Of a stretch of DNA of 64,000 nucleotides, positions 1 to 63,385 are shown in pieces. The translations under genes were made by a program, and so were the position numbers. Location: positions 2,679,476 to 2,743,475 of the forward strand of contig JBJCIZ010000239.1 in the NCBI GenBank assembly GCA_051294375.1, given 5' to 3'. Every line of letters begins with the position of its first letter. The first letter of the stretch is position 1. This stretch comes from Paraspadella gotoi. Lineage: Eukaryota > Animalia > Chaetognatha. A model generated the notes under the pieces. That model did no database searches and had not been told where the DNA came from. It worked only from the letters and a program-made list of their open reading frames with translations.

Positions 1-2970
1 AAGAATCATCACTGTAAATTAACATTCATTTTGAATACTTTTTACAACGCTCCAAGGCGACTACTTTTGACCGGTACTCCTTTGCAAAACAAGCTGCCCG
101 AGTTGTGGGCTCTTCTAAACTTCCTGCTGCCGTCTATTTTCAAATCGGTCAACACCTTTGAACAATGGTTCAATGCACCCTTCGCTCTGACGTGTGAAAA
201 GGTAGAATTAAATGCCGAAGAGTCTATGCTCATCATCCGCCGATTGCACAAGGTTTTACGCCCATTTTTGCTGAGGCGTCTGAAGAAAGAAGTCGAATCT
301 CAGTTGCCGGACAAGATCGAATACGTGATAAAATGCGATATGTCGGCTCTTCAAAAAGTCGTCTATCATCACATGCAGAAACGCGGCATCATGCTCACGA
401 ACGGAAACGAAAAGGGAAAGGGCGGAAAAGGCGGAGCCAAGGCTCTTATGAACACGATCATGCAGCTGCGTAAGTTGTGCAACCATCCGTTCATGTTCCA
501 GCACATCGAAGAATCGTTCGCGGAACACATCGGACAGCCCATCGCCGACGGAGCGCCCATGATATCCGGCCCGGATTTGTTTCGGGCCTCTGGAAAGTTC
601 GAGTTGCTGGACAGGATGCTGCCCAAGCTGAAGCACTTCGGTCATCGCGTCCTCATCTTCTGTCAAATGACGACGCTGATGACCATCATGGAAGATTATC
701 TCCAGTGGCGAGAGTACAAGTACTTGCGTCTCGACGGCGCCACGCGCGGCGACGACCGTGGAACGCTCCTCGAAAAATTCAATCACCCAGAGTCGGAATA
801 TTTCATATTCCTCCTTTCGACGAGGGCGGGCGGGTTGGGGTTGAATCTCCAAACCGCCGACACGGTTGTCATATTCGATTCCGATTGGAATCCTCATCAA
901 GACATGCAGGTTAATTTACTGTTTTATACCTTTTTCAAAATCCCAAAGTTTTTTTTTCTAGTTCATTACTTTGTATAATTTAACGAAATATATCTCGCCA
1001 TCTCAGGCTCAAGACCGCGCCCATCGAATCGGGCAGAAGAACGAAGTTCGAGTCCTGCGACTCTTGACGGTCAACTCCGTCGAGGAAAAGATTCTCGCCG
1101 CTGCCAAACACAAGATGAACATGGACGAGAAGGTCATTCAGGCGGGAATGTTCGACTCTAAATCCACCAATGTCGACCGTCGCAAATATCTGCATTCGAT
1201 TCTGGAAAAGGAGACTGGTAATTACTATATATAATATATATGTAATATATTACTGTATAATCTTAGAGAAGATGCTGATGATGATGGACATTTGACATAC
1301 AATTACATTCAATTCGTAATCAATGACTGTTGTTGAGACGTCTGACACCTTGCGCCGTGAGACGTGCGTTTCGGTTTATTTAACTAATATTTTTAAAATA
1401 TTAAACATTACTTCAACAATCGTGTATTCCTCGCCATCCCCTAGGACTGGAAGAAGAGGAAGAGGACGAAGTTCCCGACGACGAAACGATCAACCAGATG
1501 ATCGCTCGATCCGAACTCGAATTCGAAAAGTATCAGGAGATGGATATCGAGCGGCGACGCGAGGAGGCGCAGAACCCCAACCGGAAACCGCGTCTCATCG
1601 AGCAGTCGGAACTGCCGGGCTGGTTGCTCAAGGCCGACGAAGAGATCGACTCGCTCACTGCCGACGAAGAAGTCAAGGTCGGGGCGTGAAGGGATTTGTA
1701 AAGTTTGGTTCTGATAAATCGTCTAACAAAAGTTTGTGTCCAACATAAGTAATTAATATTTTCCGAATTCTCAGACGATCTTTGGAAAGGGTCATCGGGC
1801 AAGAAAAGAGGTGGACTATTCCGATGGCGTGACGGAGAAGCAGTGGCTGATGGCCATTGAGGACGGAACCCTTGATGATCTCGAGGAAAGCATCCGGGAA
1901 AAGAAGAAGGTATGGTGTATAACAATATTAAACCTTTAGGGCAATAGATTGAAAATTTATCAAAACTTAATCAGAATACGACAATATGCAAATGAAATTG
2001 ACGAACTCGATCTCATTTGAAATAATTCACAAATTAATCTGCTGCAGGTGTGCAACGCGTTTGTTTATTATTTATACATTGAATTTATCTGAAATGAAAT
2101 AAATTTTAATACGTTTGCTATGTATAAATCTATTTGAGTTTATTCTTTTTTAAATAGGAAAAAGCCAAGCGGAGAAGCAAAAAGAAAAAAGACGACGACG
2201 ACGATGACGACGACGACGACGAAGAGGAGAAAACTCCGCCCAAGAAAGGAAAGAAACGCGGACGCCCGGCCGGCGATACCCCGGCCCGCGGCGGACGCGG
2301 TCCCGGAGAAAAATTACCCAAGAACCCGCCCAAGTTGCAGAAGCAGCTGCAGAAGCTGCTCAACGTCGTCCTCAATTACTCGGACGGCACGGACGGCGAC
2401 GAGCGCGTCCTCAGCACGCCCTTCTACACGTTGCCCAAGCGCAAAGAGTACCCCGAATACTACGAAGTCATCAAAAAGCCGATGGACTTTGAGAAGATTC
2501 AGCGGAAACTGAAGAATCACCAGTACCGTTCCGTCGACGACCTCGAGCGCGACGTCTCGCTGCTTTGCAAGAACGCACAAGAGTTCAACGTGGAGAGTTC
2601 GCTCATTTACGAAGATTCCATCGTCCTCTACTCCGTCTTCACCAAAGCGCGCGAACGTATCAAGCAGGCTTCGGAGGCTTCGCGGGCCGGACCTTCCAAT
2701 GAGGGCGCCGCCGGCGGCGAAGACGACGACGACGAACGCGGCGGCAGCGTTCGCGGCGGCGGTGGCAGCGGAAGCAGCGACGACGACGATCACGAGCCGG
2801 TGGCGGTGAAAAAGCCTAAGATGGGGTCTCGTGGCGGAAGAGGGGGCGGCGCGAAGAGGGGTGGCGGACGGGGATCCAGATCAGGGGGACGACCCTCCAA
2901 GGCGCAGATGATTTCTGATGACGACGATTCGGAAGACGACGCCGCGTCCGACGCCAACGCCAGCGATTGA
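1..2970 (+). CDS. SMARCA2/4: SWI/SNF ATPase brahma/BRG1, 3' part (helicase C, SnAC, AT-hook-like, bromodomain); 5' end lies outside the window
   Basis: [52 protein letters not shown], bromodomain [20 protein letters not shown]. Manual exons 1-909, 1007-1217, 1445-1677, 1775-1909, 2158-2970, with GT-AG introns. Confidence 0.96.
1924..2047 (+). repeat. ~125-bp intronic hairpin repeat family B (other copies 16281-16405, 10615-10695 minus; partial 14280-14330, 16673-16716, 47142-47185 minus, 52819-52855)
   Basis: Shared CTTAATCAGAATACGACAATATGCAAATGA(G/A)ATTGA..TC(G/A)ATCTCATT..ATTAATCTGCT. Confidence 0.8.
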
Positions 2971-4079
2971 CGAGAATCGACTTCTGGAAAATTGCGGCCA
3001 TCAGAAATTTGGGATCGGTTTACAATTTGACCGATGGAGGAAACGAGTTAGAAAAAAAAAAAAAAACAAAAAAACAGGAAACAAAAACGCTTTACGATTC
3101 TTTCTCCGTATGCAGATTTGTTTTACCGTATGTAATCTCTTTTTGCCCTTAGTTATTTTTTTTTTTAGTGTTGGTGTCAATTAGATTCGTTTTATTTCTA
3201 TTTGACACTTTTTCTTTTTTGCAAACCTGACTTCAATGAATTTTACGGATGGACTTGAAAAATTAACTGTAAATAAGTTTGATGTTTGTCAATGCATTAA
3301 AAAGCATTAAAAAGCATTTATTAAAATTTACGTAAATTAAGATTTATCATGCATAGATTTTTGCTTTATTTTAAATATAAAAAGTTTTAAAAAAATTTTT
3401 TAAAATTCTTAATTAAATTTTCAAAAAAGATAGATTATTATAGATAATAGTTAAAGTTAATTACAATTTTTATTGGTAACGCGCCGAGGAGTTGATGAGG
3501 TAAATTGGTAGAGGTGCTCTCATGGCACTAACGTATGAGATTGTCTCCCGATCAACACTCGAGTAAAAATTGACAAAACCTTTCTAATATTACTACAATG
3601 TTTTTTTCATTTTAATTATACTAGTGTTGATCTGTGGACATTATATGAATGTTAATAGCAGTTTTACTTTGTTGCTTCTAATTCATATCCTATAGTAAAC
3701 CCATGTGTGCGTTTTTATAATTAAACTGTATTCGTGTATTATAAAACAACTCTCAACACATACACATTAGTTCGAAAAAAAAAACCGTTTCTATTAACTT
3801 TTTACAAATTTCAATGAACAAAAAAAAATCATGGTTTAAATTTTACCTACTTTTAGAATTAAATTTAAAAAAACTCAAAACTATAGTTCCAGGTTATCCA
3901 TTTCCTATAAGAATGATAAGAATGATTCATTCCTTTAATTGTGACCCTAATTTATGAACTTACTTAATCATTTTCCAACCATTTTGATATGCTATTGCAT
4001 GCCATTTTAAATATTAATCTCAGATTTCAACATGTTGCCGAGAAAATGATTCGGTTCTGAGAGAGAACTGACCCGCGCC

Positions 4080-5397
4080 ATGTACGCTTGGTTTAAGCGA
4101 AACCGGCGACGAATCGTCGTCGGCAGCGGATTGGCCGCAGGCGGTTTCCTCCTCTACAAATTCGCCGAGCGAAAACTGGAAGAGTTTCGCGAGTCCGAGG
4201 CGCAAGAGTGTCTCAAGCGAGCGAGGAAGCAGCACCACTTCGATTCCAATCAACGCACGTGCAACATGACCGCTCTCTCTATGGCCTCCACCCTCGGGGA
4301 CGCTCTCAAGGCCAAGGTGGACGCGGAGAAACTGACGGCTATGCTCCACGAAAAGCCGGAGAACAAATTGCAGATTTGGGAAGAGTTGAAAGTCCTCGCT
4401 TTCACTCGCTCAATGTCTGCCGTTTACGGAATTTGTCTGTTGGTCGTCACTTTAAGGGTCCAGCTTAATGTGTTGGGCGGATACATGTACCTCGACGCCA
4501 TCGAAGGCCACAACCATTTGGGTATCGTGCAAAAAGTGCCGGTGGCCACTCAGGAGGTGCAACAACGATACTTGTCCGCCATCGAACATTTGGTTCAAGT
4601 AAGCCGTTGCGAGAAGACAACAACGATGAGGGGAACTGCATTATCTCAACTCCTTAATAACTTAACCTTTGGCTTTTCCTTGACAGAATGGTCTGGACAA
4701 ATTGATAACACGTGTCGACACCGCCGTACGGGAAATCGTAGGTCCTTTAACACTCAAAAAGGAAATGACAGTCAGAGATATTTTGGGACTCATCATGGTC
4801 ATTCGGGATAAGGTAAATCTCGGAAGTTAACTGCATAGTTTTAAAACTACTACTACCAATTACAGTATTATTACGTATTTTTGAACTATATTTCTCAAGG
4901 TGGAATCCGGATCAACGACTGGTCTTGGTCACCCCGTCTCCGCCCCCGCCTTTCAAGCTCTGATCGAATCCGCGCTCAAGCCGGACATTCCATCACAGCA
5001 AGAAGGCGTGGAGCAGATGACGCGCGAGGACATCATCTTGACCAAGATGCACGCGGACACCAAAGACGTGATGGCCACTCCCGACTTTGCTTCGCTGCTC
5101 AACCTCTGCTTGAAGATCGCCTTCATGCGTCTCGGAGAGCAATTGGGCGAACACTTTTCCTCTTCTCCTTCCACGACGAACTCGGCCCCCGCCGTCGCGC
5201 CAGAGAACGGCAAGATTCTTCCCAAGCCCGCGCCGAAAATCCCCTTGGCCAAGATCGTTCCCTGGATCTCTGGCGCGGTCAACTCCGTTTGTGCGAGTCC
5301 CCCGAATCTGTTCATGCAGGAGTTGCTACTGCTTGAGCCATTGAAGCAGTTCTCTTGCAACGTTTACGACGCTTTCAGTCAAGAGGGAAAATTTTAA
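4080..5397 (+). CDS. PEX3: Peroxisomal biogenesis factor 3
   Basis: N-terminal KRNRRRIVVGSG + TM, RKQHHFDSNQRTCNMT, NKLQIWEELK, LRVQLNVLGGYMYLD, IPLAKIVP, FSCNVYDAFS. Exons 4080-4598, 4687-4812, 4900-5397. Confidence 0.93.
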
Positions 5398-6321: not shown

Positions 6322-8285
6322 ATGCAGAAGTACGAAAAGCTGGAGAAGATCGGGGAAGGGACCTACGGGACGGTCTTCAAGGCCAAGAACCGCGAAACGC
6401 ACGAGATCGTCGCCCTCAAACGCGTGCGTCTCGACGACGACGACGAGGGCGTCCCCTCCAGCGCCCTCAGGGAGATCTGCCTCCTCAAGGAACTGAAACA
6501 TAAGAATATAGTCAGGTACTTTCCTCCTTATCTTTTATCTCTCTCTCTCTCTCTCACACACATTCTCTCCCCCCCACCAGGCTCTACGACGTCTTGCACA
6601 GCGAGAAGAAACTGACGCTCGTCTTCGAGTTTTGCGACCAAGACTTAAAGAAGTACTTCGACTCGTGCAACGGAGAGATCGACCCGGACACCGTCAAGTC
6701 GTTCATGTTCCAACTCCTACGCGGCCTCGCCTTTTGTCACAGTCACAACGTTCTCCATCGAGATCTCAAGCCGCAGAATCTACTCATCAACAAGAACGGG
6801 GAATTGAAGCTGGCCGACTTCGGGCTCGCCCGAGCCTTCGGCATCCCCGTCCGCTGCTACTCGGCCGAAGTCGTCACGCTGTGGTACCGACCGCCCGACG
6901 TTCTCTTCGGCGCTAAACTCTACTCCACTTCCATAGACATGTGGTCGGCCGGTTGCATTTTCGCCGAACTGGCAAACGCCGGTAAGTCAGTTTTTGGTCG
7001 GCCGGTTTTTCTTTCAGTTTGTTTACTTATTTATTATATTAATATTATTTTTATTTTGGTTGTACCAATTTCATAAAATTCAGCGGCTTGTATTTGATGC
7101 TAGTGCGGAGTACAATAAGCAGATAGAGGGATGATATATTTCACTGGATTCCCCCATTTCTCTTCCCCATTCTCGCTCGAGACACCTTTTCTTCTTCCTC
7201 TTCCGCCTTCTTTCCTCCCTTTCACTCCCTTTCCCTTCCTCTCATCAGAGCGATCCGACAGAAGGGAGCAAGAGAGAGATTTTAGTTCTGTCTTGGTTCT
7301 TACTTCAGCTCGCGAGCTCCCGTCTCAGAGAATAATACTTTTTTTGCCTATTTTTTTGGACTTTTCCTTTGACTTTACTCATAGAAAGATAGAGATGATG
7401 GACCTACCCATCAGTTAGATAAGTATTCCCCGATCTAATACTTAAGTGAGTGGTCTTTTCATACAATTGAAACATTCTTTGAAATATTATACCACTTCAT
7501 TGATAGGGAAGCCAAGTACTCTGGGAGTGAATAAACGAGACTGTGAGAGAGTCTTGATTGAAAGCTTGCAGGGACCTGCTATGTCATTATCTTGTAAGAG
7601 TGATGGAGGCCTTAAACCACCAAAGCCTGTCCAAAGTCAGGGGCAAGATAGCTTATTTATTAAATGAATGGATAATTTCTATATTGGTTGTACCAATTTC
7701 TTTAAAACTATTCTAATTGATATTTGGGGGAAATTTGGTAGAACTTGACGTCGAAATTGTTAATCATTTGTGACGTAATTCAAAAATGAGGCTTTTAACG
7801 AGGTTTTATGTAATCAGTTTTTTGCGACGCAAGTTACGCAACAATATCGAACTGTCGTTCTTTGTTCACCATTTGACGATGACTTAAAATGTTTCCTTTT
7901 CCGACAGGTCGACCCTTATTTCCGGGCAACGACGCCGACGACGAGTTGAAGCGCATCTTCAAACTTCTCGGGACTCCTTGCGAAGACTCTTGGCCGGGAG
8001 TTTCTCAACTTCCGGATTTTAAGCAGTTCCCGCTTTATCCAGCCAACACGCCCCTTTCTCAGGTTTGCCATGTCCAATTGTCCATGGGGAATTAGACCAG
8101 AATTTTGTGTCGTTTCGTCGGCTTTACGATTTTTTTTCCCCCAGGTGGTGCCGAAATTGAACACCCGAGGTCGGGATCTGGTGGCCCGGCTTCTCGTTTG
8201 TAACCCCAGCCTCCGAATGTCGGCCGACGAAGCGTTGCAACACCCTTATTTTAATGATCTCAATCCCGCCATCAAGAGCGGATGA
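6322..8285 (+). CDS. CDK5: Cyclin-dependent kinase 5
   Basis: [47 protein letters not shown]. Exons 6322-6515, 6581-6981, 7908-8062, 8145-8285. Confidence 0.98.
7109..7703 (+). repeat. ~290-bp dispersed repeat family A, copy 1 (CDK5 intron), interrupted by a 299-bp insertion
   Basis: 7419-7700 is a near-identical reverse complement of 11602-11892; the element start AGTACAATAAG is at 7109. Confidence 0.85.
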
Positions 8286-8990: not shown

Positions 8991-11900
8991 ATGTCGGTCC
9001 TGGAAGAATTGCAAATATCCGTGAGTTAAAATAATAAAAAATTAATCCACCCCCGCCGGTTTTTTTTCTCAAGAATCTGCTTCGTTCTCTTCGAATCAGG
9101 GCGTCCGTAGCGTGGGTCCCAACGACCCCGTCCGAGTCAGCTTCTTCAAGCCGCTCACGGTGATCGTGGGACAAAATGGGAGCGGGAAGACGACGCTCAT
9201 CGAATCCCTCCGCTACGCCACCACAGGCGACTTTCCGCCCAACGCACGAACCTCCTTCGTTCACGATCCTAAGTTGACCGATACGCCCACCGTTTCGGCG
9301 CAGGTTTGTAATTAAAGGAAGTCTGGCGTTTTTAATCGAGTATTAATTATTTTCTTAATAGGTTCGCCTCCAATTCAACGACGCTACGGGGATTTCTCGA
9401 ACCGCAATTCGCAACTTGCGAGCCACAGCCACTGCCAAGAACGTCTCCATCAAGGTCCTTGACTCTACTATCAAATGGGACGATCGCGGCGACTGCCAGA
9501 CGAACACCTACAAAGACGCCGATTACAAACAGGAGATGGCTGCTTACCTTCATGTGCCGGAAGCAGTTCTCAAATCCGTCATCTTTTGCCACCAGGACGA
9601 GTCCAACTGGCCGCTGGGGTGAGAGAGAGAGAGAGAGAGAGACAGATTTTAATTTCGTGTATATTTTGATGAGGTTGAAAAGTATTTACTTACTAGAACA
9701 CTTCCTTATTCCCCGTCAGGGAAAGCAAATCGGTCAAGGACACTTTCGACAAGATCTTCGGCGCTGAAAGATACACCAAAGCGCTCGACGAGATTCGCCG
9801 CATTCAAAAAGATCTGGGAATCAAACAAAAGGGGCTCGAAGATTCGTTGAAGTTTTTGGACGATAGGAAGCGAACCGCCGATAAGTGGAGGAAGGAATTA
9901 AAAGGTCAGAATTGAGTGAATAAACAAGACTGTGAGAGAGTCTTGATTGAAAGCTTGCGAGGTCCTCAGGTCCTGCTATGTTATTATCTTCTAAGTGTGA
10001 TGGAGGCCTTAAACCACCATAACCTCTCCATAGTCAGAGTCAAAGTCAAGATTGCTTATTGAATGAATGAATGAATAATTTTTATATTGATTGTACCAAT
10101 TTCATAACAATTTTTTTCTTCCCCCACCTCATCCTACCCCCTCTTGAAAAAACAAGAAAAAAAAATATATTTTTTTTCTTTTAGAAAACGAGGAAGAGTT
10201 AGAAAATGTGCTGGGTCGAATCGCGGAGGAGAAGGAAAAGCGGCCTCCGGTTCAGGAAGAAATCAACCGCCTCAACTCTGACAAGGATTGTCTCGCCGAC
10301 ATCGCCCGGCGTGAGGGAATTATTAAGGGCGCGCGGGACACCATCGAGGAGCAAATCGCCGGTAAAAGCGGCCATCTTTCATTTTCTTTTTAAATTTAAT
10401 TTCATAAATTTAATTTCATTCGATCGTCCCGACGTTCACGATATTCTCCCTGCGTTTTTCTTCAGAGGCGGCCCAGACAATGATCAACATTTTGAAGGAT
10501 TTAACGATCGAACAGTTGGAAGAACAAAAGAACGAGTTGTCGGAAAAGTGCGAGGTTCTGAAGGAAGAAAACGCGAAGATTTATCGAGAAATTCAACAGG
10601 TTCGAGAGTTCACTCTGTAGCAGATTGATTTGTTAATAATTTTCCAATGAGATCAAGTGCGTCGATCTCATTTGCATGGTTCTGATTAAGTTTTTAACTC
10701 CAGTTTTTAAAAGTCTTTTTAAAGATTCTCTTATTCCCCCTCTCTCTTCCCTCAGACCACGAAGAGCATAAAGGAGGAAGAGAAGGCGATGCGAAGTCAC
10801 AATCAGGAAGTTGGAAAATTAGAGAAAGAAAAGTCTGATTACGAAGAGTTGCTCAAGGAGAGAAACGAGACTCTCGTCAGCAACGCCCATGACATGGCGA
10901 TCGAAGGTTAATTAATTCTTCACTAGTTATTAACGAAGCTAAAACAAAAACTGCCACGAAACAGTGCACAAAGTACAACCATTCTTTGTCCAATGTTCGC
11001 CGTTATTTGTTCCGTTTCACCCAGGGTTTCTTCAATAGCCTTTTCAAGTTCTTTGTCATTCCGTTCAGGCTTCGACAGTCCCGACTCGATCGACGACGCC
11101 AAGGAGAAAATCTTTATCGACAAAGTCAACGACAAATTACAAAATCTCATCGCCGAGATGCGCGTGAGTTCTCTCTTCTTCTCCTTCGTAATCGGAATCT
11201 CTTTTTCCCCTTCGTTGTCCTTTCTATTATATATTTCTCCCTTAAAGACGGAGACGCAAAAATTCACCGACGACGAGCGCGACATCTCGGCGCGAATCCA
11301 GGAGAATCACGAGGAGATCGTCAAGCGGGAGACGTCGATAAGGATGAAGGGAGAACAGAAGAGAAGGTTGCAAAGGGAACTCGTCGACGTGGAGAAGCAG
11401 CTCGCCAAAGTCGATTCCAACAAAGCGAGGTGCGTTGAGCAGCGAAACCGGGGTCTTCGGTTTTTAATAGATGTCCTTTCGTTGTTGTGGCGCAAGTACT
11501 CCTACGGAAATACTCTCACTTTTCTGTCGTTTGATGTATTTTCATGCTTATTTATTTTATCGAGTCTAGGATTTTTTAAGTTCCTCGTTTGATGTTTATT
11601 ATTATGAAATGGTACAACCAATATAAAAATTATCCATTCATTTAATAAATAAGCTATCTTGCCCCTGACTTTGGACAGGCTTTGGTGGTTTAAAGCCTCC
11701 ATCACTCTTACAAGATAATGACATAGCAGGTCCCTGCAAGCTTTCAATCAAGACTTTCTCACAGTCTCGTTTATTCACTCCCAGAGTTCCTGGCTTCCCT
11801 ATCAATGAAGTGGTATAATATTTCAAAGAATGTTTCAATTGTATGAAAAGACCACTCCCTTAAGTATTAGATCGGGGAATACTTATTGTACTATTGTACT

Positions 11901-14900
11901 ATATTACTGTATTGTATTATTGTACTATATTACTAATACATGAAACGTTTCCGCAGAATGTCGGCCTTGAACGAGGACTTACAAGAGGCGGAGAAGCGGT
12001 TGGAGGAGCATCGAGCGACGTTGAACGTCGAGGAGACGAAGACGAGAATCGGAGAATTGGAGGAGAAGAAAAAGGAACTCAACCAGAAATCAAAGAACTC
12101 GATCTCGAACAGGAGGAGGTAAAAGGGCTCTTGAGTGTGGGGTAGGTTTTCCACTGGGCATATCTTTCAGTAAACCCTTACTGGTTGAAGTCTGGACCGG
12201 CCTCACCTAAAGGGGAGCACCTTAAGAAAGCTTGAAGCATACTTGGACGCCTTTTTTTTTCTCTAAATGATAAACAAAGCAAACAAATAATTGCGGGGAT
12301 TGTTTAAAAAATAAAAAAAAAGGTTCGGCAAACCGAAAAATTTACAAAAAAGGAGACAGTAAATCAAGAACTCAAGCGATTCCGTCCACATGAGAAGGCG
12401 GTTCAATCACGTGGCTTCAGGAAGCGAGCAGTTTTCAAAGCTTGTGCTTAAGGCAGACGAACAGTTTCTAAAAGAATTACTTTGGCGTTTTGCGGAAGTT
12501 TAGGCCTGCATTTGTTGCTTGGAGTTTGAAATTTGGGACTAAATTTATTGCTTGGAGTTAGGAATGAATTCATTAATCTCTTTTGCATTATTTAGTCGTT
12601 TTGAAATTAGTTTTCGATAAATTTACCACTCATAATTTAGCTTATCTGATTGTTACCTTTATGATTTAATGGGGGACATCAGCTTAGCTAAGTCATCTTA
12701 AGATCATCAACATGGCATTCCGTCTTTTCGCAGGTGGCTAAACTGACTCAGCAATTGACGACGCTAGAGCACGTGACCAAAGAGCAAACGACCAAGCAGT
12801 CAAATCTCGAGGATTATTGGACCAAACATGAGCCCGCGCTTAAGACCATCTTCGGCGAAAATTTTCAACGAACGACGGGACTAAAGAAAAAAATCGCCGT
12901 GAGAAACAAAAAAATGTTTTTTAAGTCTAACCTAAATAATTTCTCAATTTTATTGCTTAAACTTTGCTCGACCCAGGATTGGATCAAATCAAAGGACAGA
13001 GAATTGAAAGCCGCCCAGAAAGATCGCAACAAGGTGGACATCAGCATCAGCACTAAGCAGAACCAACTCAGGAGTTACACGGAAGAGAAGAAGAGGAAAG
13101 AGGAGGAGGTGAAGAACAAGGAAGCTCGCATTAAGGAACGATGCGAAGACAAGCCGCTCCACGAGAAACAGTTTGAGATCGAAGATCTCATCGACAGAGG
13201 TCGGGATTTATTATTACTTTTATTAATATCATCGTGATTACTTATTATTTTAAAACGTAATTTATTAGAGCGCAAGAAGCATACGCGATCGAAAGGAATC
13301 AATTTGACGTATAAAGGCTTTATGGAACACGTGCAAAAACCCCCGCACGATTGTCCCGTTTGCAGCGCTGACCTCTCTAGCTCGTGGGAAGAGGTCAAGG
13401 CGAAGCTTCAGCGAGAAATTGAGGAGGTATAGTTGGAAAATATGTGTACACTAACTTTTCTACTTGATAATATAATTTGTTAAAACCTTTTTGTTTGTTT
13501 GCTTGTTTGTGGCTCAGGTTCCCCAACGCATCAACATGCTGGAGGAGAAGATTAAAGGTCTCTTCGCGGAGGAAAGGAAACTCAACGATTTAAAACCCGT
13601 GCAAGACGCCGTGGAGAAGATCAGGCAAGTTCATTCTCGAGGATGGTTTCACAGTTGTTGCTCAATTCGAAATCTTGGGACGAATATATCGAATATATGC
13701 GATTACTATTTTTTTAAATTCAATTTAACTATTTCTTTTTCTTTTTAATGCAGAAACACGGACATTCCCGAGTTGGAGAGGAAGATGGAAGAGACGCAGG
13801 GGGAGATCGAGCGACTGCGAAAGGAAAAGGAAGGAAAGGACGAAAACTGCAAAGCCATGGAGACTCTGGTCGAGAGCGCCAGAACCGTGCAGCAGGTGAC
13901 CACACTGGGTGCTATTATTGCTGGTCTTTTAGCTCCGAGGGAAATTTCACGAGATTCCGTTGCCAGGGCCCTTTCTTAATTAGTAATTGTGTGTCTCTCT
14001 CTCTCACAGGACGCTCAACAAATGGATTCTTTAGATTCTGAATTAAAAGAGTTGAAGCGAAAGTTGGATCGCCTCGATCACAGCGGAAGTTTGGAAGGAA
14101 AGCGAAAGTTGCACGAAGTCCAAGAGGAAAAGGAAGAGAAAGGGAGGGAGAGAGATGCCGTGGACGCGGAGCACTCGGACAAGAACAATCGACTATATCG
14201 CTATCAGGACAATTTGAACAAGTGGGTCGCTATACGTTTGGATAGTACGCTTTAAAGCTACGTAATAAAAAAAACCGCCATATGCAAATGAGATTAAGAT
14301 GCCCGATCTTATTCGAAATAACGCTGCTAGAATACATAGTACATAGTAATAGAAAAAGAAAAATTTTTAGTTGGAATTATTTTTTCGATATCAATTTTTT
14401 CCAGATACACAAACGAGGTGACCCATTTGCGTCAAGAAAGAGTTTCCATCCAAGAGGACATTTCCCGCCAACGCCAGTTGGAGGAACGAAAGTTGGATCT
14501 GGACAGAGAGATCGAGGACGCGGATCGCGCCGTCGACGACCTTCGCCAAGAGATGAGACCCTTTCAGGACAAGACGGCCGAACTCAACGAAGAGAAGAGC
14601 GATAGGGTCAGGGCCAAAGATATTTTATTGCAGGATCTGCGAATCACGCAAGACTCTTACGCCAAAAAGAAAACCGCCATCGGTAACATGACCACGAAGG
14701 TAATTCGTCTGATTTTGATTTTTTTTAAAAAGAATTTCGTTTTTTTTTTTAAATTTCCCCCCTATTTTTCTTACTTCGTCTTCAGTTGAAGGAATACGTG
14801 AGAAAAGGCCGAGCCGGTAAATTGGCCGATGCGTTGGAAACGCGGAACGCTTGCGAAGCTAAAATACAACAACTGAAAAAAGATAAGGAAGAGTTGGAGG

Positions 14901-25331: not shown

Positions 25332-26145
<814 letters not shown>

Positions 26146-46440: not shown

Positions 46441-46442
<2 letters not shown>

Positions 46443-46486
<44 letters not shown>
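46443..46486. repeat. (CT)n microsatellite
   Basis: About 22 CT units. Confidence 0.95.
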
Positions 46487-46488
<2 letters not shown>

Positions 46489-49834: not shown

Positions 49835-52800
49835 ATGTCCGCCTCTCGGTCGCCCCCTCCCGACGCCGCCTCCAAATCTCGAACAAAAGACGTCGAATCC
49901 GACCTCGACAAAGACGCCGCCCACGCCAACCACAATGGCGGAAGTCGGAGGCAATCGCGGCGAAGGTTTGTACAAGCTCGAATGAGTCCCCTCTACTTTC
50001 AACTACAAATTCAAACGGCCTTTTCGTTCTAAATGTTATTTTAAAATTTGTTTGTCTATGTCTACCTCTCAAAATTTGTTTATAATTTTATTTTATTAAA
50101 AAAAGTTTCCTGCTTTGATTAATGTCATCTGCACTTTGGCCTTTTGTTTTTTGCATTTGTCATTGTCTTAAAATGAACATTTTTATATAAGTCGAAAATC
50201 TTGTATATCACAAAAGGACGCTATATTCAAATTGGGATATGAATTTTGAGATTCGAAAATGCTTTTCAGATCTGCTTCTAGCGGCGCGGAAGGAGGTTCA
50301 CAATCCGGACTCGACTCTCCCACTTTCTTCTTGTTTCGAATTGGAGGTGATCATTTAATTGTTCACGTTAAGGCGGTCGCATAACTAACAAACATATGCT
50401 TGTGTCAAATATTTTTCAGGTCGTCAATCTATCATTCGATCCCCGGAGCCGCAGCGAAAGTCGCGCGCGGCGTCGGCGGGCAGCAGAGCGACATCGTCGC
50501 CGCGCAATCACATCAAGACCCCGTCGGGTCAAGGAACCGGAGAACCGCGTCCTCGTCGTCACAGCACCACCGGGGCCACCATCACCGCCTCCAAGGCAGA
50601 CCCGTTGGAGGATCGCGACGACGACGACGACGATAGCGCGGATCCCTTCGCTACTTTGCCGCCGTTGACTCGTGGGAGGCGCGAAGAAAGCGCCTCTCCC
50701 ACCAACCGGCGCCGGCAACGTCACCACACCCACTCGCGCGAGAGGGACGCCTCTTCCTCCGCGCACGGCGCCCGACAGCGGCGACAGCAGCAGCATCCGG
50801 ATTCCTTGGACATCGAGAAGACGACTTCCCTCGAAGTCACCGGCGCCACGCAGAAGGAGAAGGAAGAGATCTGCGCCAAGATCGCGAGCCTCACCGCCTC
50901 GGGAACCTCCTGCGCCTCCTTCGCCAAAACGGCGTCTTCGCGCGACGAAGGCGGCGAGGATTCCTCGGCCCCGATCACCGCGCAACCGCGTCACCGACAA
51001 CACGAACAACCACCGCAACGCCTCGGCACGAAAAAGCCTCTGATCTCAAACGCGTCGATCGGCAGCTTTCCTAGTCATAAAATAATCCCCAACGGCGTCG
51101 ACGCCGCCGCAAACGATAATAAATATTCCGCTGAAGTATCCACCTCCACGCATTATTCTTCTCATAACCAAAACATTCGGTCTAAGCTCGAACCGGCGCC
51201 CAGAGACGGAGAGAGAGGCGGGACGCGAAACGTGAGAAGGTCAACTGGAGACGACGGCGACGACGACGATTACGACGACGATTACGACGACGAAGTCATT
51301 TCGCCGCCGCCTCCTTACAGTGCCGTCATGACTTCGCAACCGCCGATGCTTCCGTCTCCTCCTCTTCCTTCGCTTCGCTCTGCTCTGCCCGACTCGACGC
51401 TGAGGGCGCCGTCTCCGAATCGAACGACGAGCGCCTCCAGCCCTTTGAATATTCCCAAGTCCGACAAAAGTCCTAACGCCGCCGTAGCCAACGCTTCCAG
51501 TCCGCTCCATCTACCCAAGCCTCAAAGCCCCACCATCACTTTGCTCCAAAAGGTAATGCTTCTTTTCTCTATTTTTCTTCTTTTTTTACAAATTGTTGAC
51601 TGCCTTTGTCATTGTTATTGTTATTGTCATTGTCATCCAGGCCAGAGAGGGGCAATTGCCAAAGGCAGGGGCCAGTTACATCAACTCTGTTACGGACGAA
51701 ACGAGAGGCATCGAAAAGGCCGACACGGAAAATCCTCAGCGTTGCGTTTTGACCACTGGTTCCCGTTCCAACGACACGGTGGGTGATTACGTAGTAGAAT
51801 AATCGAACCGAGAACGATAGTTGATTATTCTTACCCGCGAAACAGGCGAAGAAAGCCAAGCCGATCGTGGTCGCCGACGCGCGTTACTTTAACAACAAAG
51901 AACTTGCGAAAGTAGAACCGAAGAGCATTCGTGAATACGCCCCTGGAGAAGGGAGCATTGCTAAGTCTCAACAGGATCAGGTTTTCAAATTTGTTTTCTT
52001 TTCATTGAGGAAAAAATATAAATATTATTCTATAAAACTTCAGAAACGTCAATTTCTCACCGAGAACGGATTGGAGGAATTGTCCTCGTTCGGCGTCGAA
52101 TCCAAATCGGCGCGAGTTCGGCGCTGGATTGAACTCGAGGGTCGGCGTCAACCCGAAGCCAAGATTCAGAAGCATCCGTCTCGGTCTCCCTCCGGTACCG
52201 ATCCATTTCGCCTTGCTTCATTTTATTTTTCCTATTTTCCCTTTCAGTTCAATATCCCAATTGGTCCCATTGTCTAAAAAATATCCTTTCCCCAGCGGAC
52301 CAACAGCGGGAGTGGTACCGGGACGTTCAAAAAGGCGGCGAGATCCCCATGCTGGGGCTGCGGAAGGTCTCGCCTTCTCCGCCTTCTCCCGTCGCCAATA
52401 ATTCTAAATCGCCCACTCAATTGCTGGTGAGACTTAATTTCCTTTCACTCTAAGGGGTAAGACGTTGAATCACCCCCCCTACCGGGCCTTACACCCTTTT
52501 TCCTTACCCCGTTTCCAGGGCGGTCGCCTCACGCCGACGTCTCCCTCTCGTCCTGATTCCCAAGCCTTGTCTGGTCGAACGGAAAAGAGGAGACAACCGT
52601 TAAATCCTAATTTATTGGAAGTGAGTTTATACCGAAGGTATATTCCTGTTGCGGATGAATATTGTTGTCGTTGAATATTGTGGATCATACGTAATTCTTT
52701 TGTGAATGGTTCGGTATCGATCTGCTGTGTTTTCAAACCTAATACATTGATATCAATAAATTCACAATTTGTAACCTTAATTTGTACTGAATGTAGGTTG

Positions 52801-55800
52801 AGTCAAATTTAAAACCATTATATGCAAATGAGATTAATTAACTTTATTTCATTTGCCGATAAATTGAAAAGGCTCGTCCCTTATATTCTCTCTGTTCTTA
52901 TCAAGAGAAGGAATGGTCGTCTGAGCTTACGAATTCTAGCCAATCGTAACATTTCTTCTCCCCCCCACCTCCGCAGGCCGAACTCACGCTGATCGACGAG
53001 GAACAGAGAAAGCTGAACCGGGAGATGGCCAAGTTTTTGGTCGAGGACGAAAGAAGGAGGAAAAAACTCAAAGAGGAAGAGGATTTGGAGAGACGGAAAC
53101 ACTCTGACTTCCTCACCCCGGACCAGGTAAATAGTGAGCGGGGTAGACGCCTGTGGGGAGGACGTCTTTACGTTCCTTCAATATTTAAGTGACATTAGTG
53201 AAATTTTAATGTTTTTTTTTTGGTTTTTTTTATCCAGAAATCTCCGATACCTCAGAACCGTTTTGACGATTTGGATCAGGCGGGGCGAGTTTTCAGTGAC
53301 GGAGGTTTCGGGAGTCGGGGTTCGTCTCTCGGTAAGCCTGTTGGCACTTTAAACCAAACTTTTTTTTAGATTTGGTTTAGATTAAATTAGTATTAGGCAC
53401 TGATTAATCCTTGACAGGTCGAAGCAGAAACGGAAGCTCTGGTGACCCTGGGAGACGCGCCGTGGCTCTCTTTAACTTTTACACTTCCAACCCAAAAGAG
53501 CTTTCATTTGAAAAGGGCAGCATTCTTTACATTAACAGGTCTGAATTCTTTGGAGATTGTTTTATTACGTCGATGATTATTTTTCTAACGCGTCCTCTTA
53601 ATTCAGACAAGTGGACAATAACTGGTTCGACGGCGAATTCCATGGTAACAGAGGCATTTTCCCTGTTTCTTACGTTGAAGTGGTAAATTCGCCGGAACAG
53701 GTGATTAAAAATTAAGCGGTAATCACGCTTAAAGTAGGTATTTCGTATTTAGTAAGCTTAAACGTCCACAGGCGGTTCGAGTTATACAAGCGCAACGCCT
53801 CCTGTCGGAAGGTCAAGCGAAAACCAAGTTCAATTTCGTGGCTCAGTCTTCGATGGAGATGAGTCTGAGGAAGGGCGAAATCGTCGTCATCATCAGAAGG
53901 GTCGATGCTAACTGGTGAGCAAATTTTTTTTCCGTTGCTGCACCTGCTGCTGCAACTTCTTTCCCACCTCCCCTCATCTTTGTTCTTTACTTTTTAGGTA
54001 CGAAGGGAAGATCGGATCTAGACGAGGGATATTCCCTTGCTCCTACGTCGACGTTTTGGCGGAGCCCGGAAGTCGAGCGCCCCCGATCATCCCCACCACG
54101 ATCGCGGGCCTCGTCATGCCCTCTTCGGTCGCCGCCTCGGTAGGAGGAGGAGGAAGCAGCTCTTGGTCGCGACTGGGCACGCTTACCCCACAACCCACAC
54201 CACCGCCACACCCTACGCGCTACTCGGCGCAATCCTTGTCGTCTAACGACGGGCTCAGGCCTTCCTCGGCAGAATTCGGTGGCGGAAGCGGAGGAGGGGG
54301 TTCCAGTCGCGGGTGAGTGGATGGAATAGTTGGGGAAAAAATTGTTAAACCCTTGAATACCTTTATGACGGAGAGCTACTTTCTATATTCTATAAGGGGT
54401 TCATTTTAGTTTCATTTTCGCATGCCTGAAAAGCCATAATCCTCAGTGGGCGTGTCAGAGGCAATATATATGTTTTTGATGGAGACAATTTCATGAGGAA
54501 GATCATTGAAAGTCTTAATGAATTGTCCACGCTGTACCAAAATCCGCAGAGCTTCTCCCTCGCCCTGCCCTCCCTATGCGGGATCTTCTCGACCCGGGTC
54601 TTCGGGAGCCATCAAGTCTCCTTCCTTTTCCCCGGAGCCGAAATCCAGTCGAGGCGGCGTCGAATCTAGGGACATCGCACTTCGGGTCTTCAAAGCCGCC
54701 TACAATTACAACCCTCAGGCGAGATTTGTTATTTAATAGTCATTGAAGGTTGAGCAGAGTAATTTATGAATCTAATTATTACGGATGCCTGCCGCCGGTT
54801 TCTCTCACCGCATGTTTGGATTTACTAATACTTAAATATGACTTATGACTTAATATGACTAATTCAAAGCCGACTGATTCATGTTTGTCTGTGCAGAAGG
54901 AAGACGAATTATATCTCCGCCAGGGGGACATCGTTTACGTGATTGAGGAATGTGACGACGGTTGGTTTGTGGGTAAGCACTTTTTATCTATTTTTATTAC
55001 AGTTTGTTCTTTATTGAAATTGCGAATTTGAAAACCTTGAAAGCTTAGTTAAAAGTTAATAGCTAAGTTAAAAACAGAAAATGATTGTAAATTACTAGAA
55101 AGAGAAATTCAGGTATTGTGGAAGACCACGACATAGGGTGAAAACAGTTTATTGCGAGGCAATACAATGATATAAAAAGGTGATTAAATAATGATTACAG
55201 AGCGGAGAGATGTTACGAGATGAAAGGTTGAATTGTTGTGTCTCTCGTGGCTACGGCCACGACCGAAGAAACCCGTTGAAGCCCGGGACGACGAGATCAA
55301 TGACCTGAGGTCTGAGGTCATGTGGCCGTTGAGGGAAAAGAGAGAGAGAGTCGAGGTAACTCGGCCTCATCCCCCCTCAAGTCGTGGCTCCGGAAAGAGG
55401 CGCGGCTGACACCACTGTTGCCGTGTCCATGAATTGATAAAGGGTGCTTTGGCACAAAAGAGTCGCTGTTGATGCACAAAGTTTGTCAAGTCCAAATCCA
55501 TGAGCCGAGGAATAACGGGAGGGTGATAGCCACATGCGGTTTTGGCGTCGTCTTGGCGTCTGCCACGCGTTTTTGCCGTCTTCCACGCATTGCTGTTGTA
55601 GCTCTAGTTGTAGCAGAGGCTTGTTCATATTCTGCAGCCTTTTTGTGGACGTGTTGGCCGACAATTTCGAGGTTATTTCCTCAGGAATTTCGTAGTTGGC
55701 GTCAAAGAAAACGCTGTCATCAATATCGCCAGAGTCACTGGGAACAGAGGTGGATGAAGGCGACGATATTAATGATGGAGACCTTGTTTGTTTTGTCGAT

Positions 55801-58012
55801 TTTGTCGTAAGATAAAGGTGAAAAGAAATAGAAAAAGAGTGAAGTAATAAAAGGGGGTAAAGGAACGAAAATTTTGAGAAAATAATTATTAAAATAGTTG
55901 GAAATAACAGAGGTAGAATAAAAAGTAATAAAAAAATATGAAAAGGAGCAAATTTCATATTTGAATTGTTAGAAAAGCGTTAAGGTTTTTTGTTTCATTG
56001 TAGGAATGATGTTTGAGCATTGAAGGAGAATCGGGGGCATTGAAGGAGTTTGATTCTTTAGAGCATCAATAAAAACGTCAGATTCGGTACTGCCAGAATC
56101 ACGAGCAGAGGCTGATGCCACGAGCTTTTTGGATACGCAAATTGACGAAGGTGTCGGCGATAGTTTTGGTAGAGATAAGTTTTTCCTCGGCGTCTTCTTG
56201 CTTTGCTCGTCAACGGCGTCGTAGTAAACGTCGGGAAAAGAAAACGCTGAGGGCGACTCAACCAGTGTTGGAGTTTTTGGCAGAGTGATTTGTCCAGAGA
56301 GGGTTTTGGTAATGTTAGGTGGAGGATTTATATATTCTCCAGAGTAGATTGGTGACCGCGACACCGGAGATAGGGACTTAAATTGGAGGTGTGAAAAAGG
56401 AGTCTTTTTTGGAGGGGACATGGAAACGAGACAGCGAATCGCCCTTGTGAATGCAAGCTGATGGGTGAATCCTCGCTTTCACAAAGAATGTATTTTTTAC
56501 TAAAAGTGGAAGATTCAAACAAGTTCCAATTCATCCATTTTTCTTGTTCACGTTGGGAGGTAGGATACTTAGTTGGGAGGTTGGTTGGCCAATATTGTAA
56601 ACATTTTCAAAGTTTTTTTTTTTTTTTTTAAGGACGGGAAGGTTTTTAGGAGGCTTTTTTTTATAGTGTTTTTCACAGAAGGATTTTTTGGCGTGTTCTC
56701 GTCGGGCTCACCAATGTGGAAGACCACGACATAGGGTGAAAACAGTTTATTGCGAGGCAATACAATGATATAAAAAGGTGATTAAATAATGATTACAGAG
56801 CGGAGAGATGTTACGAGATGAAAGGTTGAATTGGTTGTGTCTCTCGTGGCTACGGCCACGACCGAAGAAACCCGTTGAAGCCCGGGACGACGAGATCAAT
56901 GACCTGAGGTCTGAGGTCATGTGGCCGTTGAGGGAAAAGAGAGAGAGAGTCGAGGTAACTCGGCCTCAGTATGAAAGTAATTTAATTATGCCGTGACTAT
57001 GGTTCAATTAAGTCTTGATCGTTATTTACAATTCTCCTTAGTTCAGCTCTTAAAAATATAATGTTGGTTTTTAGTTTCTTCGCGAATACTCTCTAAGAAA
57101 CTCGCTTTTTGGTCGGTTGATATGCCTGTCTGTCGGTTTATGCTACTTACGTTTTAAATGTTTATAATTCCGTTGAGTTAATTCTATTAAGTTCATATTT
57201 GGTAAGAATGAAAGGTACTATAAAACCTTTAATTTACATATGTATCATACTTGTGCAGGCACAGGATCATTTAAAAAAGCAAATACAGAAGGCTTCATAT
57301 TATAAAATGAGGTACCCCTTTTTTGTGACTAGAACACGGTCCGAGAAAATTACTGGACCAAATTCATTGAAATTTGGTATGAATGATTATTCATTATTCC
57401 ATTTATATCGTCTTTAAGACTGTATAAATCTATTTAGTCTATATGTAAAATTTCATGAAATTCGATCAGGTAGTTTGGTGGGAACAGATTCTGGTCACAA
57501 AAAGGGGTACCTCATTTTATAATATGAAGCCTTCTGTACATGACCAATGCATTGACCATAAATTAAATGCGGTTTTATTCATAAAATATCATATTATTAT
57601 AGTTAATATTTGGCAGACTGATAAGATGTATTTCATGTGATCATAAAATTTAAATGCAGCATGTTTTGTTTAATATTTGGTTTTTTTAGTTAAAATTTTG
57701 CAGAAAAGTGATCGTTTGGACGTTTGTTACAAAAATAAGAATAAATAGTAAAAATATAGAATTTGTAATATATAATTTTAATGAATATTATAAAATCTAA
57801 AACTTAAATAGTGAAACAAGTAATTTTGCAATTTTCACATATATTTTTAGTTATATAGACAGAAGATCACCCGGAAATACACGTGAAAAGAAAGTTACTG
57901 CGGCGCAACACATTGGAATTATCGTTCTTGTTTAATTTTTTTAACAGGTAGCAACGCCAGATCTGGTAGATTTGGAACTTTCCCTGGAAATTTCGTGGAA
58001 CCTCATGCTTAA
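49835..58012 (+). CDS. SORBS: CAP/vinexin/ArgBP2 (SORBS family) adaptor with three C-terminal SH3 domains; start codon uncertain
   Basis: [38 protein letters not shown]3-1 [24 protein letters not shown]3-2 [28 protein letters not shown]3-3 [24 protein letters not shown]/..[12 protein letters not shown]; stop at 58012. Confidence 0.85.
55117..56968 (-). mobile_element. Non-autonomous LTR retrotransposon (gypsy-type signals) in the last SORBS intron
   Basis: LTRs 55117-55369 and 56715-56968 (TG..CA, identical by eye except a 1-nt indel); 4-bp TSD GTAT; minus-strand PBS TGGTGAGCCCGAC next to the 5' LTR and PPT TTGAGGGGGGA next to the 3' LTR; no gag/pol motifs seen. Confidence 0.93.
57286..57536. 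mobile_element. Tc1/mariner-type MITE
   Basis: About 45-bp TIRs CAGAAGGCTTCATATTATAAAATGAGGTACCCCTTTTT.., TA on both flanks. Confidence 0.88.
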
Positions 58013-59814: not shown

Positions 59815-61610
59815 ATGGAGCGAGGTTCTGGACTGTGCTTCGCCGATTGCATGGGTCGAATACCCTACGGATCTCTCATCGCTACATTCATCGTTGGAAC
59901 TGGTCATTATACCGAATTCTAACCGAAAATATTAAATCAACGAATGTCAAAAGTGTAATGATTGAATTTTTTTAGGAGTCTCAGCGGCTTGCATTTGCAT
60001 TTGGATCGGTCTTCCTTACCTTGTGGAGATGATGTCGTCCTTCAACGTCGACATTTCCAGTTTGACCAATGAGTTCCGAAATTACGTCATCATTACTGGC
60101 GTCGTGATGAGCGGAGTGGCCCTCATCGAACTGGTGCTTGGCTTTATGGCCACTGGAAATACTAGGTAAGTAGTCATTGTATAATAGTCATAGTAGTCAT
60201 TGTAAATCTTCAACCGGTTTTCCTTTTTGGCTATGATGCTTGGCTTATAAGCTACAGAAGTTGAAACCCAGAATCTTCCGATGGTACAACCTCCTCTATA
60301 CGCTTTGTCTGTTCCTTCCTAATTGCGTCTCGAGCTCTGTTTCATTGGGTCACCAATTAAGATAAACATTTTTGATTAATTTTTACGTTTATCGCGTTAA
60401 CAATACATATAATTTTTTAAACACTCATTGCGAAATGAATTATTTTCGCATTTAAATTTCTTCAGATTTAACAAATGAATTTTTTGTATCATTATTTCCC
60501 TTGTTTATTACTATATTTTTTGTTATCGAGGCAATCCTGATTACAATCTTTTTTCCAATGATAGCAATTCAAAGAAATGTAAATTCTAAGAAATGTAGTC
60601 ATCTGTCATATATCTCACTGTAATTATGAATACCGACGTACCTTCAAAAACCAGAAAGAGTTCCGGAACAGTTTTTAAGCGGAATCAGCATAATGTGAGA
60701 CAATCCAATCCAACAGGATTGATTTATGATACTATCTATTAGGAAACTAGGGCAGTAAGTAACCTAACCATGTATTGCATAGATGCTCCCTCTGTTTTCA
60801 GAAGACAACACTAACTTCGAAATCCCAATAATAGATTTAAATAATTAAAAAAAGATGATAAAAAATAATTGAAAAAGAAAAAAAAAATTAAATCATAAAT
60901 AATAAATAGTTTAAAATCTAAAAAAAAACTTAAGAAACAATTTTCATACAGACAGAGACAGAAACGAAAAACCCCCGACAGAGATTCGCATAATGATTCG
61001 CTTGTCCCTCTTCCAATCAGACGTCGAGTTTACACCGGTTTCAAGTCTCGCCTTCTCGGTCGTCTGGGTACGGCCCTTTTCATCCTCATCACCTACGCGC
61101 TGACGCTGCTCTGGTGCGTCCTCTGCTGCTTTCTCGTCGTCATCGCCTTCTTCTTCGTCATCTCTCAAACGCACTGCGGGCGCTACGGCGACGGGGAGCA
61201 TTGGGACAAACGCGACTGCTTCAACATCACCGTCATTCTCGACGGGTTCCCGCTTCATTTGCCGACTTTGGAGGGAAAAGTAAGTTCCACGCTGACTCGC
61301 TGAGGGTAAGGCTGAGATTTACTCACCCGATTTGCAGGAGGATCTCAACTCCCGCGTCTGTGGGCAAGAATTTCAAAAGTACTGCAACCAGTCGCAGGAC
61401 GGATCCGTTTACATCTACGCCGCCACCGCCGGCGTCTGCCTCATCGTTCTCGGTCTCGTCCATTATCTCATGTGCCTCACCGCCAACTACGCCATGATCA
61501 AGGATGGGGCCAAACTTAGAGAGTTCGAGGACGTCCGTTTCGCCGAGGAGGTGGAACTGAGAAATATAATGGAGGGGAGCGACGCCAGATCTCCGAGCTA
61601 TTATCACTGA
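59815..61610 (+). CDS. M6: Myelin proteolipid family protein M6 (GPM6/PLP-like)
   Basis: DCMGRIPYGSLIAT, GFMATGNTR/RRVYTGFKSRL.GR, four TM segments, GLVHYLMCLTANYAMIKD. Confidence 0.88.
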
Positions 61611-62464: not shown

Positions 62465-63385
62465 ATGCCGAAAATAAAGACGCACGCGGATTCCCCGCCA
62501 GCGGCGGCGGAGTCTCCCCCTCTTCCGGAATGTTTCCCGGAAATGCTTTCGGCTCCGGATTTGCGCGCGGCGTTGCTCCGATTCGGCGCTTCCGTCGATC
62601 CCGGCGCGACGCACGAAGAGCTCCTTCGGCTTCACTACGAAATTCTCAACCCGAAACCTCAGCGGACAAAAACGCGGTCAAACAGAAGGGGACAGAAAAT
62701 TCAACTCCGTCAAATTCGATCGGAGAAAAGAAAACGAAAATTGGAGACGGAAAAAGACTCTTTTTCGAAATCGAACAAATTCTCGCGAGCAGAATCCGTC
62801 AACAACTCCGTCAACGCCCCTAACATTGCGGGTCCATTCGGTGACCGACTCGAACCTCCGCCGGGTCTCCGCGGAAACTCGGTCAAGTCGGTCCAGTCTT
62901 TCTCCCTCGACTCTTTGGCCCACATTAAGATCAACGAGGGTCCTTCGAAAAAGCCCAAGGTTTTCGAAAGAATAACCGAGAGCTCCTCCTCGGTATCTTC
63001 GTCAGACTCTAAGACTCCTTCCCACCCAATTACCTCACCCGCGGTCGAGTGTAAATTTTGGGACATGTTCGGTTCAATTACCAACGGAATTCCCACGCTC
63101 CTTTGCGACAATCACAACAAAGTTGAGGCTCGAAAGTCATCCTCTCCGGAGAGACTTCGCTTAGCACCGAAAAGAGTTCTCAAACTAAATAGAAAAACAG
63201 TGCTTCCTTCGTCGGACTCGCCCGTCGTCGCCGCCAACGCCGCCAAAGTTTCCGTCGTATCGACGAAACGGTCCTTACACCGTGACGTGGACAGAGCTAT
63301 CTCCTCGGATTCTGGGTCGGACATGGACACCTCCGAGCCAGGGCCTCGAGAAACGAGGAAGATTACCAAAATTACTTGGCCGTAG
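62465..63385 (+). CDS. Ashwin (C2orf49-like, tRNA ligase complex subunit), intronless
   Basis: PEMLS..LL..HEELLRLHYEILNPKPQR N-terminal block and C-terminal KITKITWP. Confidence 0.75.
   Translation: MPKIKTHADSPPAAAESPPLPECFPEMLSAPDLRAALLRFGASVDPGATHEELLRLHYEILNPKPQRTKTRSNRRGQKIQLRQIRSEKRKRKLETEKDSFSKSNKFSRAESVNNSVNAPNIAGPFGDRLEPPPGLRGNSVKSVQSFSLDSLAHIKINEGPSKKPKVFERITESSSSVSSSDSKTPSHPITSPAVECKFWDMFGSITNGIPTLLCDNHNKVEARKSSSPERLRLAPKRVLKLNRKTVLPSSDSPVVAANAAKVSVVSTKRSLHRDVDRAISSDSGSDMDTSEPGPRETRKITKITWP

Follow-up and report, generated by a model that had tools for sequence, protein, structure and literature searches.

Twenty-one unrelated genes on one strand in a 64-kb stretch of the chaetognath Paraspadella gotoi, with spliced-leader trans-splicing at one of them

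Genes of the window and their orientation

We analysed a stretch of 64,000 nucleotides from the genome of the chaetognath Paraspadella gotoi (GCA_051294375.1, contig JBJCIZ010000239.1, positions 2,679,476 to 2,743,475 of the forward strand; hereafter the window), in which positions 1 to 63385 carry a run of genes with unrelated functions all being encoded on the plus strand. We obtained 21 gene models, corresponding to one gene per about 3.0 kb, and 21/21 are plus-oriented (Table 1). In 19 models at least one exon scores above the Pfam curated cut-off, the other two, a predicted immunoglobulin (Ig)-superfamily protein and a predicted Ashwin, being supported by Atlas leads. The Pfam scan covered 135 of the 225 plus-strand open reading frames (ORFs) of at least 60 amino acids, chosen by eye, and all 180 minus-strand ORFs of this size. 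None of these 180 reached the cut-off, four giving weak matches with E-values of 0.003-0.01, and minus-strand genes made solely of exons shorter than 60 codons could escape the scan in the larger gaps and introns. In a cross-validated coding model, for which training and application used opposite halves of the window, 87 segments were retained on the plus and 10 on the minus strand. Of the latter, six overlap plus exons, two fall within a long terminal repeat (LTR)-like insert, one is weak and located upstream of the SORBS-like gene and one lies at the window edge (63910-63999).

When each of the 21 models was compared with all others by BLASTP, no cross match was obtained at E<=1e-3, showing that the run contains no paralogues and does not represent a tandem paralogue array. 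The spliced models contain false micro-exons in long introns, which were filtered out for the junction statistics and retained only for this paralogy check. Together, these data confirm the one-strand arrangement of the 21 genes and uphold an earlier note on this DNA, which had stated all supported genes to be on the plus strand, no credible host gene to be on the minus strand and the genes to be unrelated rather than tandem duplicates. The exons are GC-rich and the introns short and AT-rich with a median length of 92 nt. On both sides the one-way run extends to the window edges or past them, resulting in a run of at least 21 genes. At the right edge we observed a GC-rich coding-like stretch (63910-64000), for which the coding model favours a minus frame (score 17), although a plus frame likewise starts with an ATG at 63951; this stretch could belong to a 22nd gene or mark where the run ends. 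Neither the Rfam search (0 matches) nor the tRNA search (0) of the window pointed to a gene for a leader RNA or to any other listed RNA. Names marked as presumed in Table 1 are our assumption, the domain searches giving the families only.

Table 1. Features of the window, in order of position (X1, public sequencing run described below).
Feature	Position	Strand	Evidence and remarks
SMARCA4/Brahma, 3' part	1..2970	+	SNF2, Helicase_C, SnAC, Bromodomain; gene starts left of window
PEX3	4080..5397	+	Peroxin-3, E 1.5e-27
Protein kinase, presumably CDK5-like	6322..8285	+	Pkinase; no acceptor <=100 nt before ATG
RAD50	8991..17754	+	AAA_23, zinc hook, SbcC Walker B; last intron = X1 joint
rRNA-processing protein, presumably CCDC59/TAP26-like	18332..18738	+	PF08524, E 5e-14; predicted acceptor 18310
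TXNDC16-like	18800..22269	+	TXNDC16_N 27.2 bits (cut-off 27); five X1 joints; predicted acceptor 18781
Predicted Ig-superfamily single-pass membrane protein	23022..24560	+	Atlas Ig lead 0.92-0.93; X1 contig 22775-24445
DPCD trans-splice acceptor	25327	+	First base after AG; leader-like end GCTTGTTTAAA attached there
DPCD	25374..26145	+	PF14913 on three exons; two X1 joints
Intronless ankyrin + TTC3/DZIP3 domain + RING protein	26328..29429	+	Pfam; X1 contig 26327-29615
Rab GDI	29746..31539	+	PF00996; X1 contig continues to 32879
DPM2	33076..33416	+	PF07297; predicted acceptor 33019, score 12.8
Tyrosine phosphatase, presumably PTPN1/2-like	33520..36067	+	Y_phosphatase; six X1 joints among those listed; contig end 36981
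RNA methyltransferase, presumably NSUN3/4-like	37786..39210	+	PF01189
SCFD1/Sly1	39667..42251	+	Sec1, E 7e-110; named homologues 60-64% identical
2'-5' oligoadenylate synthetase-like	42765..44088	+	OAS1_C, NTP_transf_2
CDGSH iron-sulfur protein, presumably CISD3-like	44719..45592	+	zf-CDGSH twice
SRP9	45767..46120	+	PF05486, 24.6 bits (cut-off 21)
F-box/LRR protein	46698..48750	+	F-box-like, E 5e-13
Three SH3 domains, presumably SORBS/vinexin-like	49835..58012	+	SH3 matches; strong acceptors 49582, 49643, none <=100 nt before ATG
LTR-like mobile insert, not host gene	55117..56968	-	Two 253/254-nt TG..CA repeats; in last SORBS-like intron
M6/proteolipid protein	59815..61610	+	Myelin_PLP; no acceptor <=100 nt before ATG
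Predicted Ashwin (tRNA-ligase complex subunit)	62465..63385	+	Atlas 0.92, 9/10 best matches one family; coding-model score 85

Junctions between the genes and trans-splicing at DPCD

We compared positions 17500-37499 with X1, a public sequencing run of unstranded contigs which is presumed to be RNA and may contain DNA. X1 contains 75% of the sampled words of 38000-47000 and its contigs cover 30/30 bins of the compared region. The comparison comprises 15 of the 22 joints, 6 of the 27 loose ends and 8 of the 83 pieces, eight further loose ends having been dropped at repeats. Among these 15 joints, 14 read GT..AG on the plus strand, one is non-canonical (24442-24636) and none reads CT..AC. One of the loose ends, the foreign 11-nt sequence GCTTGTTTAAA, is joined at 25327, i.e. 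immediately following an AG and 47 nt upstream of the start codon of DPCD, and an acceptor matrix built from 73 introns scores the same site best for DPCD. Its last 10 letters are identical to the end of the F. enflata spliced leaders SL3.1/3.2 and its last nine to the end of SL2 (PMC2481426, Table 3; this and the other papers cited by identifier being drawn on in part), and the 11-mer is absent from the window sequence. We see spliced-leader trans-splicing at this one gene, DPCD.

Two further observations from X1 concern individual gene models. The non-canonical joint skips 193 nt and reads GG..AG at one cut; the C-terminus of the Ig-like protein would thereby be exchanged for a coding-like stretch, and the spliced form may end at 24840. 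An unusual donor, an error of the reference or an allele could account for this joint. In the CCDC59-like gene X1 has one additional base near 18459, at a point at which the reading frame opened by the first genomic ATG is broken, suggesting that the window may contain a one-base error or an allele here rather than a short intron of the gene model.

With start codons picked by eye, the stop-to-ATG gaps at the 20 junctions range from 61 to 1802 bp with a median of 604 bp. Four of them do not exceed 250 bp (61, 103, 174 and 182 bp) and leave little room for a promoter, the TXNDC16-like gene starting 61 bp past the CCDC59-like stop and the PTPN-like gene 103 bp past the DPM2 stop. At three junctions with a gap above 250 bp the contigs, whose ends were partly derived from the end offsets of the contig table, come close to the next predicted acceptor: the spliced RAD50 contig ends at about 18290, about 19 nt before the acceptor of the CCDC59-like gene, the TTC3-like contig ends 53 nt before that of GDI and a GDI contig piece ends at 32879, about 139 nt before that of DPM2. 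The gaps thus overstate the free space, and the short distances are compatible with polycistronic processing without proving it. Applying the distance used for chaetognath operons, neighbours lie closer than 250 bp at 4/20 junctions by stop-to-ATG gap and at three more by the distance from contig end to acceptor, one further contig lying outside it, and the block as a whole exceeds this distance.

The best acceptor score within the 100 nt before the start codon has a median of 6.8, whereas the medians are 4.4 for 119 other windows of the gaps on the plus strand (p=0.018) and 2.9 for the minus strand (p=0.002), and 15/20 genes have a candidate acceptor scoring above 4 in this interval. T runs outnumber A runs on the plus strand of the gaps (54 vs 24), with T exceeding A in 17/20 gaps, and 10/20 gaps have no AATAAA on the plus strand (not compared with shuffled sequence). 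The NSUN-like gene may have a 5' intron of 823 nt, bounded by a strong donor at 36955 and a strong acceptor at 37778; the piece before it (36919-36955) contains an ATG with a short reading that is out of frame, and it overlaps with the terminal part of the PTPN-like contig.

The junctions would also fit mostly single-gene trans-spliced units with their own promoters, only the four close pairs being true operons and co-orientation resulting, for example, from the break-up of older operons or from avoidance of antisense read-through. The median and maximum of the gaps, the very mixed gene functions and the 3,565 operon genes compared to 10,197 trans-spliced genes reported for P. gotoi (PMC12460157) are in agreement with such an arrangement. 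However, it gives no direct reason for 20/20 same-strand junctions and the three contigs that stop only 19-139 nt short of the following acceptor, in gaps above 250 bp, speak against it, so that we regard it as rather improbable.

Chance, related systems and models of transcription

Under random orientation the probability of 21 genes sharing a strand is 2 x 0.5^21 = 9.5e-7, and the value of about 1e-6 given in the earlier note is correct for this assumption. Applying the published P. gotoi operon rate, the probability of neighbours being on the same strand is only 0.55-0.57, corresponding to 6e-6 to 1.1e-5 per window and to 0.06-0.11 expected such runs per genome of 22,072 genes. The single-window probability overstates the case because the window was picked as an outlier. 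These numbers, together with the selection of the window for this feature, leave some room for a chance outlier in a genome of ordinary short operons and random orientation, found by scanning many windows. Judged from this window alone a selected chance outlier is unlikely, and it becomes highly improbable in view of a second chaetognath locus reported in 2008, the bacterial artificial chromosome (BAC) 35A21 of Spadella cephaloptera, in which a run of 13 host genes (14 rows) occupies one strand with P about 1e-3 under the operon null.

Table S5 of PMC2481426 contains 24 rows for BAC 35A21 (158 kb). We set aside nine rows that bear a transposon label, name a recombinase or stand without label next to such rows, and one row without strand. 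All named host rows (14/14) are on the plus strand over about 120 kb, and the four minus rows are all among those set aside; two chondroitin-synthase rows may be one gene, resulting in the 13 host genes. If taken as unselected, the 95% lower bound of the mean run length amounts to 4.5 genes for the BAC alone and to 11 genes for both loci. On the BAC GDI is followed by RPS14 and PCNA, in the window by DPM2, supporting that the feature common to both is orientation and not gene order; the GDI genes may be paralogues. The 2008 paper had already considered, in the part drawn on here, that other same-orientation genes of the BAC could be operonic (PMC2481426). The two loci suggest that distance-based operon calling underestimates the size of transcription units in the phylum.

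Trans-splicing and operons have been described in chaetognaths before (PMC2481426, PMC2566580, PMC12460157). In P. gotoi nearly half of the genes are reported to be trans-spliced and 18% to be in operons, which were called by gaps below 250 bp and contain on average about 2.4 and at most nine genes (PMC12460157). The block resembles the operons of S. cephaloptera (PMC2481426) and P. gotoi (PMC12460157) in the same leader 3' end and in unrelated housekeeping genes being arranged head to tail; judged from the contig ends at three junctions, it may also share the very short distance between mRNA end and acceptor, which is 3 nt at RPS14-PCNA (PMC2481426). The same-strand arrangement (21/21) and the leader on at least one gene (DPCD, one contig, 11 nt) are those of chaetognath operons. 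In contrast to the called operons it comprises at least 21 genes, most gaps exceed 250 bp and neural, signalling and immune genes are included. Operons of C. elegans, Macrostomum, Ciona and Oikopleura are likewise leader-resolved, co-oriented and of mixed functions, the maxima being eight genes in C. elegans and nine in Macrostomum (PMC8629364) and six to seven in Ciona (PMC7986045).

Same-strand runs are reported to comprise about two genes in animals (525 Ensembl metazoan genomes) and about 30 in trypanosomatids, and the transcription units of C. elegans to be randomly oriented (10.64898/2026.07.29.740908). The block shares with the directional clusters of trypanosomatids the long same-strand run, the unrelated genes and leader addition, and its at least 21 genes, among which there are no paralogues, correspond to the tens of unrelated same-strand genes of those clusters and come near to their mean of about 30. 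Unlike them it consists of intron-rich genes, and universal trans-splicing and the loss of promoters, both features of trypanosomatids, disagree with the P. gotoi data in the parts of the literature drawn on. We found no literature description of long directional clusters in chaetognaths or other animals, the search covering neither most subscription papers nor the P. gotoi supplementary tables. The words strand, orientation, direction and intergenic do not occur in the main text of PMC12460157; gene orientation is likewise not addressed in the F. enflata genome preprint, nor in the part consulted of the S. cephaloptera atlas preprint. The block would be far longer than the one-way gene runs reported for animals in the literature found, where animal genes are described as near-randomly oriented even if operons exist and long one-way clusters are regarded as a protist speciality. 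On this comparison the block would work like an array of leader-resolved operons at a scale nearer to that of protist directional clusters.

We favour, at slightly better than even confidence, a model according to which the 21-gene block is a chain of a few consecutive leader-resolved polycistronic units with some internal promoters. RNA polymerase II would read beyond the 3' end of each gene, and the T-rich acceptor before the next ATG would receive a capped leader, resulting in a new 5' end and a nearby upstream 3' end. A few internal promoters may be kept, most likely before the neural and signalling genes CDK5, SORBS-like and M6; P. gotoi operons are reported to be depleted of neural and signalling genes (PMC12460157). 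Selection would create and maintain long one-way blocks because read-through gives useful mRNA if the next gene is co-oriented and antisense RNA if it is inverted. Chromosomal rearrangement is accelerated in chaetognaths (PMC12460157), and an old gene order having simply been inherited would therefore be less likely.

Several observations weigh against a chain of polycistronic units. Sixteen of the 20 stop-to-ATG gaps exceed 250 bp, an acceptor close to the ATG is lacking in five of 20 genes (CDK5, PTPN, SORBS-like, M6 and Ashwin-like), and only 11/20 pre-ATG windows, compared to 33/119 controls, reach the lower quartile of intron acceptors; an acceptor before an ATG may instead close an ordinary 5' untranslated region (UTR) intron. 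The PTPN-like contig stops 796 nt before the NSUN-like acceptor, and long 3' UTRs account equally well for contig ends near acceptors. The leader-like end is a single one, 11 nt long and from one contig, among 6 of 27 loose ends, and the genomic 11 nt preceding 25327 partly resemble it, so that an indel allele is possible, though needing several changes. X1 is presumed RNA in unstranded contigs, which reveal neither strand nor the starts and ends of transcripts, and a contig spanning a gap does not demonstrate one continuous transcript. Finally, the BAC table is restricted to predictions with a SwissProt match and has breaks in its gene numbering, and the BAC had been selected for the operon it carries.

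The earlier note had proposed long polycistronic units or chains of co-oriented operons resolved by trans-splicing. The leader at DPCD and the contig ends near acceptors support this proposal in part, the version with one very long unit being less supported: four of 20 gaps not exceeding 250 bp and five genes without a near acceptor argue for chains rather than for one unit. In its strictest form, a single trypanosome-like unit of at least 63 kb would have no promoter other than one at a strand switch beyond the window and every mRNA, including the neural ones, would be trans-spliced. The lack of a minus-strand host gene over 63 kb, the contig cover in every bin compared, the gaps without AATAAA and the same one-way pattern along about 120 kb of the Spadella BAC are in line with such a unit. 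It is weakened by P. gotoi having only about half of its genes trans-spliced, a longest operon of nine genes and conserved distal regulatory regions (PMC12460157), and by CDK5, M6 and the Ashwin-like gene lacking a near acceptor after gaps of 0.85-1.8 kb; we consider it unlikely. That chaetognath chromosomes are generally organised in trypanosome-like one-way blocks of tens of intron-containing genes, read as very long polycistronic units with promoters mainly at the block ends, is conceivable, and we hold it to be doubtful.

If transcription units of the phylum are indeed larger than called by distance, chaetognaths would provide an animal model in which to study how trans-splicing reshapes the layout of the genome, termination and the use of promoters, and how the cell specificity of neural genes is kept within one-way blocks. 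If the trypanosome-like organisation were true, an animal would independently have shifted much of its gene control from the start of transcription to RNA processing.

Individual genes, mobile elements and repeats

The Atlas lead for the Ig-like protein has a recognition below the tool's 2300 mark, and the protein has neither a Pfam nor a PDB match; the Ashwin-like protein likewise has no Pfam match. For the protein of 1033 amino acids combining ankyrin, TTC3/DZIP3 and RING domains, a search of proteins similar in length yielded no relative over the full length at E<=1e-10, and its intronless gene is possibly lineage-specific or a retrocopy. The oligoadenylate synthetase-like gene (42765-44088), a member of an antiviral family, lies amid housekeeping genes of the block.

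When metagenomes were scanned with the SCFD1 alignment, 80 loci were retrieved, but no close one was among them (best full-length match 63%). SCFD1 is 79% identical to unnamed Logan/JGI/ENA proteins. In a midpoint-rooted tree of 34 rows (27 others picked from 128 proteins), which includes no named chaetognath or rotifer, it groups with six unnamed sequences in a clade (support 100/100) that has a long stem and does not fall among the named deuterostomes, arthropods and lophotrochozoans. Together with the leader end at DPCD, this position fits a chaetognath host.

The LTR-like insert is the only clear minus-oriented element in the window. Its two repeats of 253 and 254 nt are identical except for one extra base, it is flanked by a 4-bp duplication and it has primer-site-like and purine-tract-like motifs on the minus strand. 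The interior of about 1.35 kb contains two ORFs without Pfam match. The insert resembles a non-autonomous retroelement of recent origin, in antisense orientation to the block.

Three kinds of repeats were observed in introns. A repeat of about 280 nt occurs in both orientations in the CDK5 and RAD50 introns (7419-7698, 11607-11886 and 9914-10115), two copies being 98% identical. Elements resembling miniature inverted-repeat transposable elements with long terminal inverted repeats are located at 15006-15557, 41614-41795 and 57284-57538. A family of short repeats with a conserved core of about 15 nt is present at 1919-2046, 16276-16403, 16659-16717, 14256-14314, 52796-52854 and 47112-47192.

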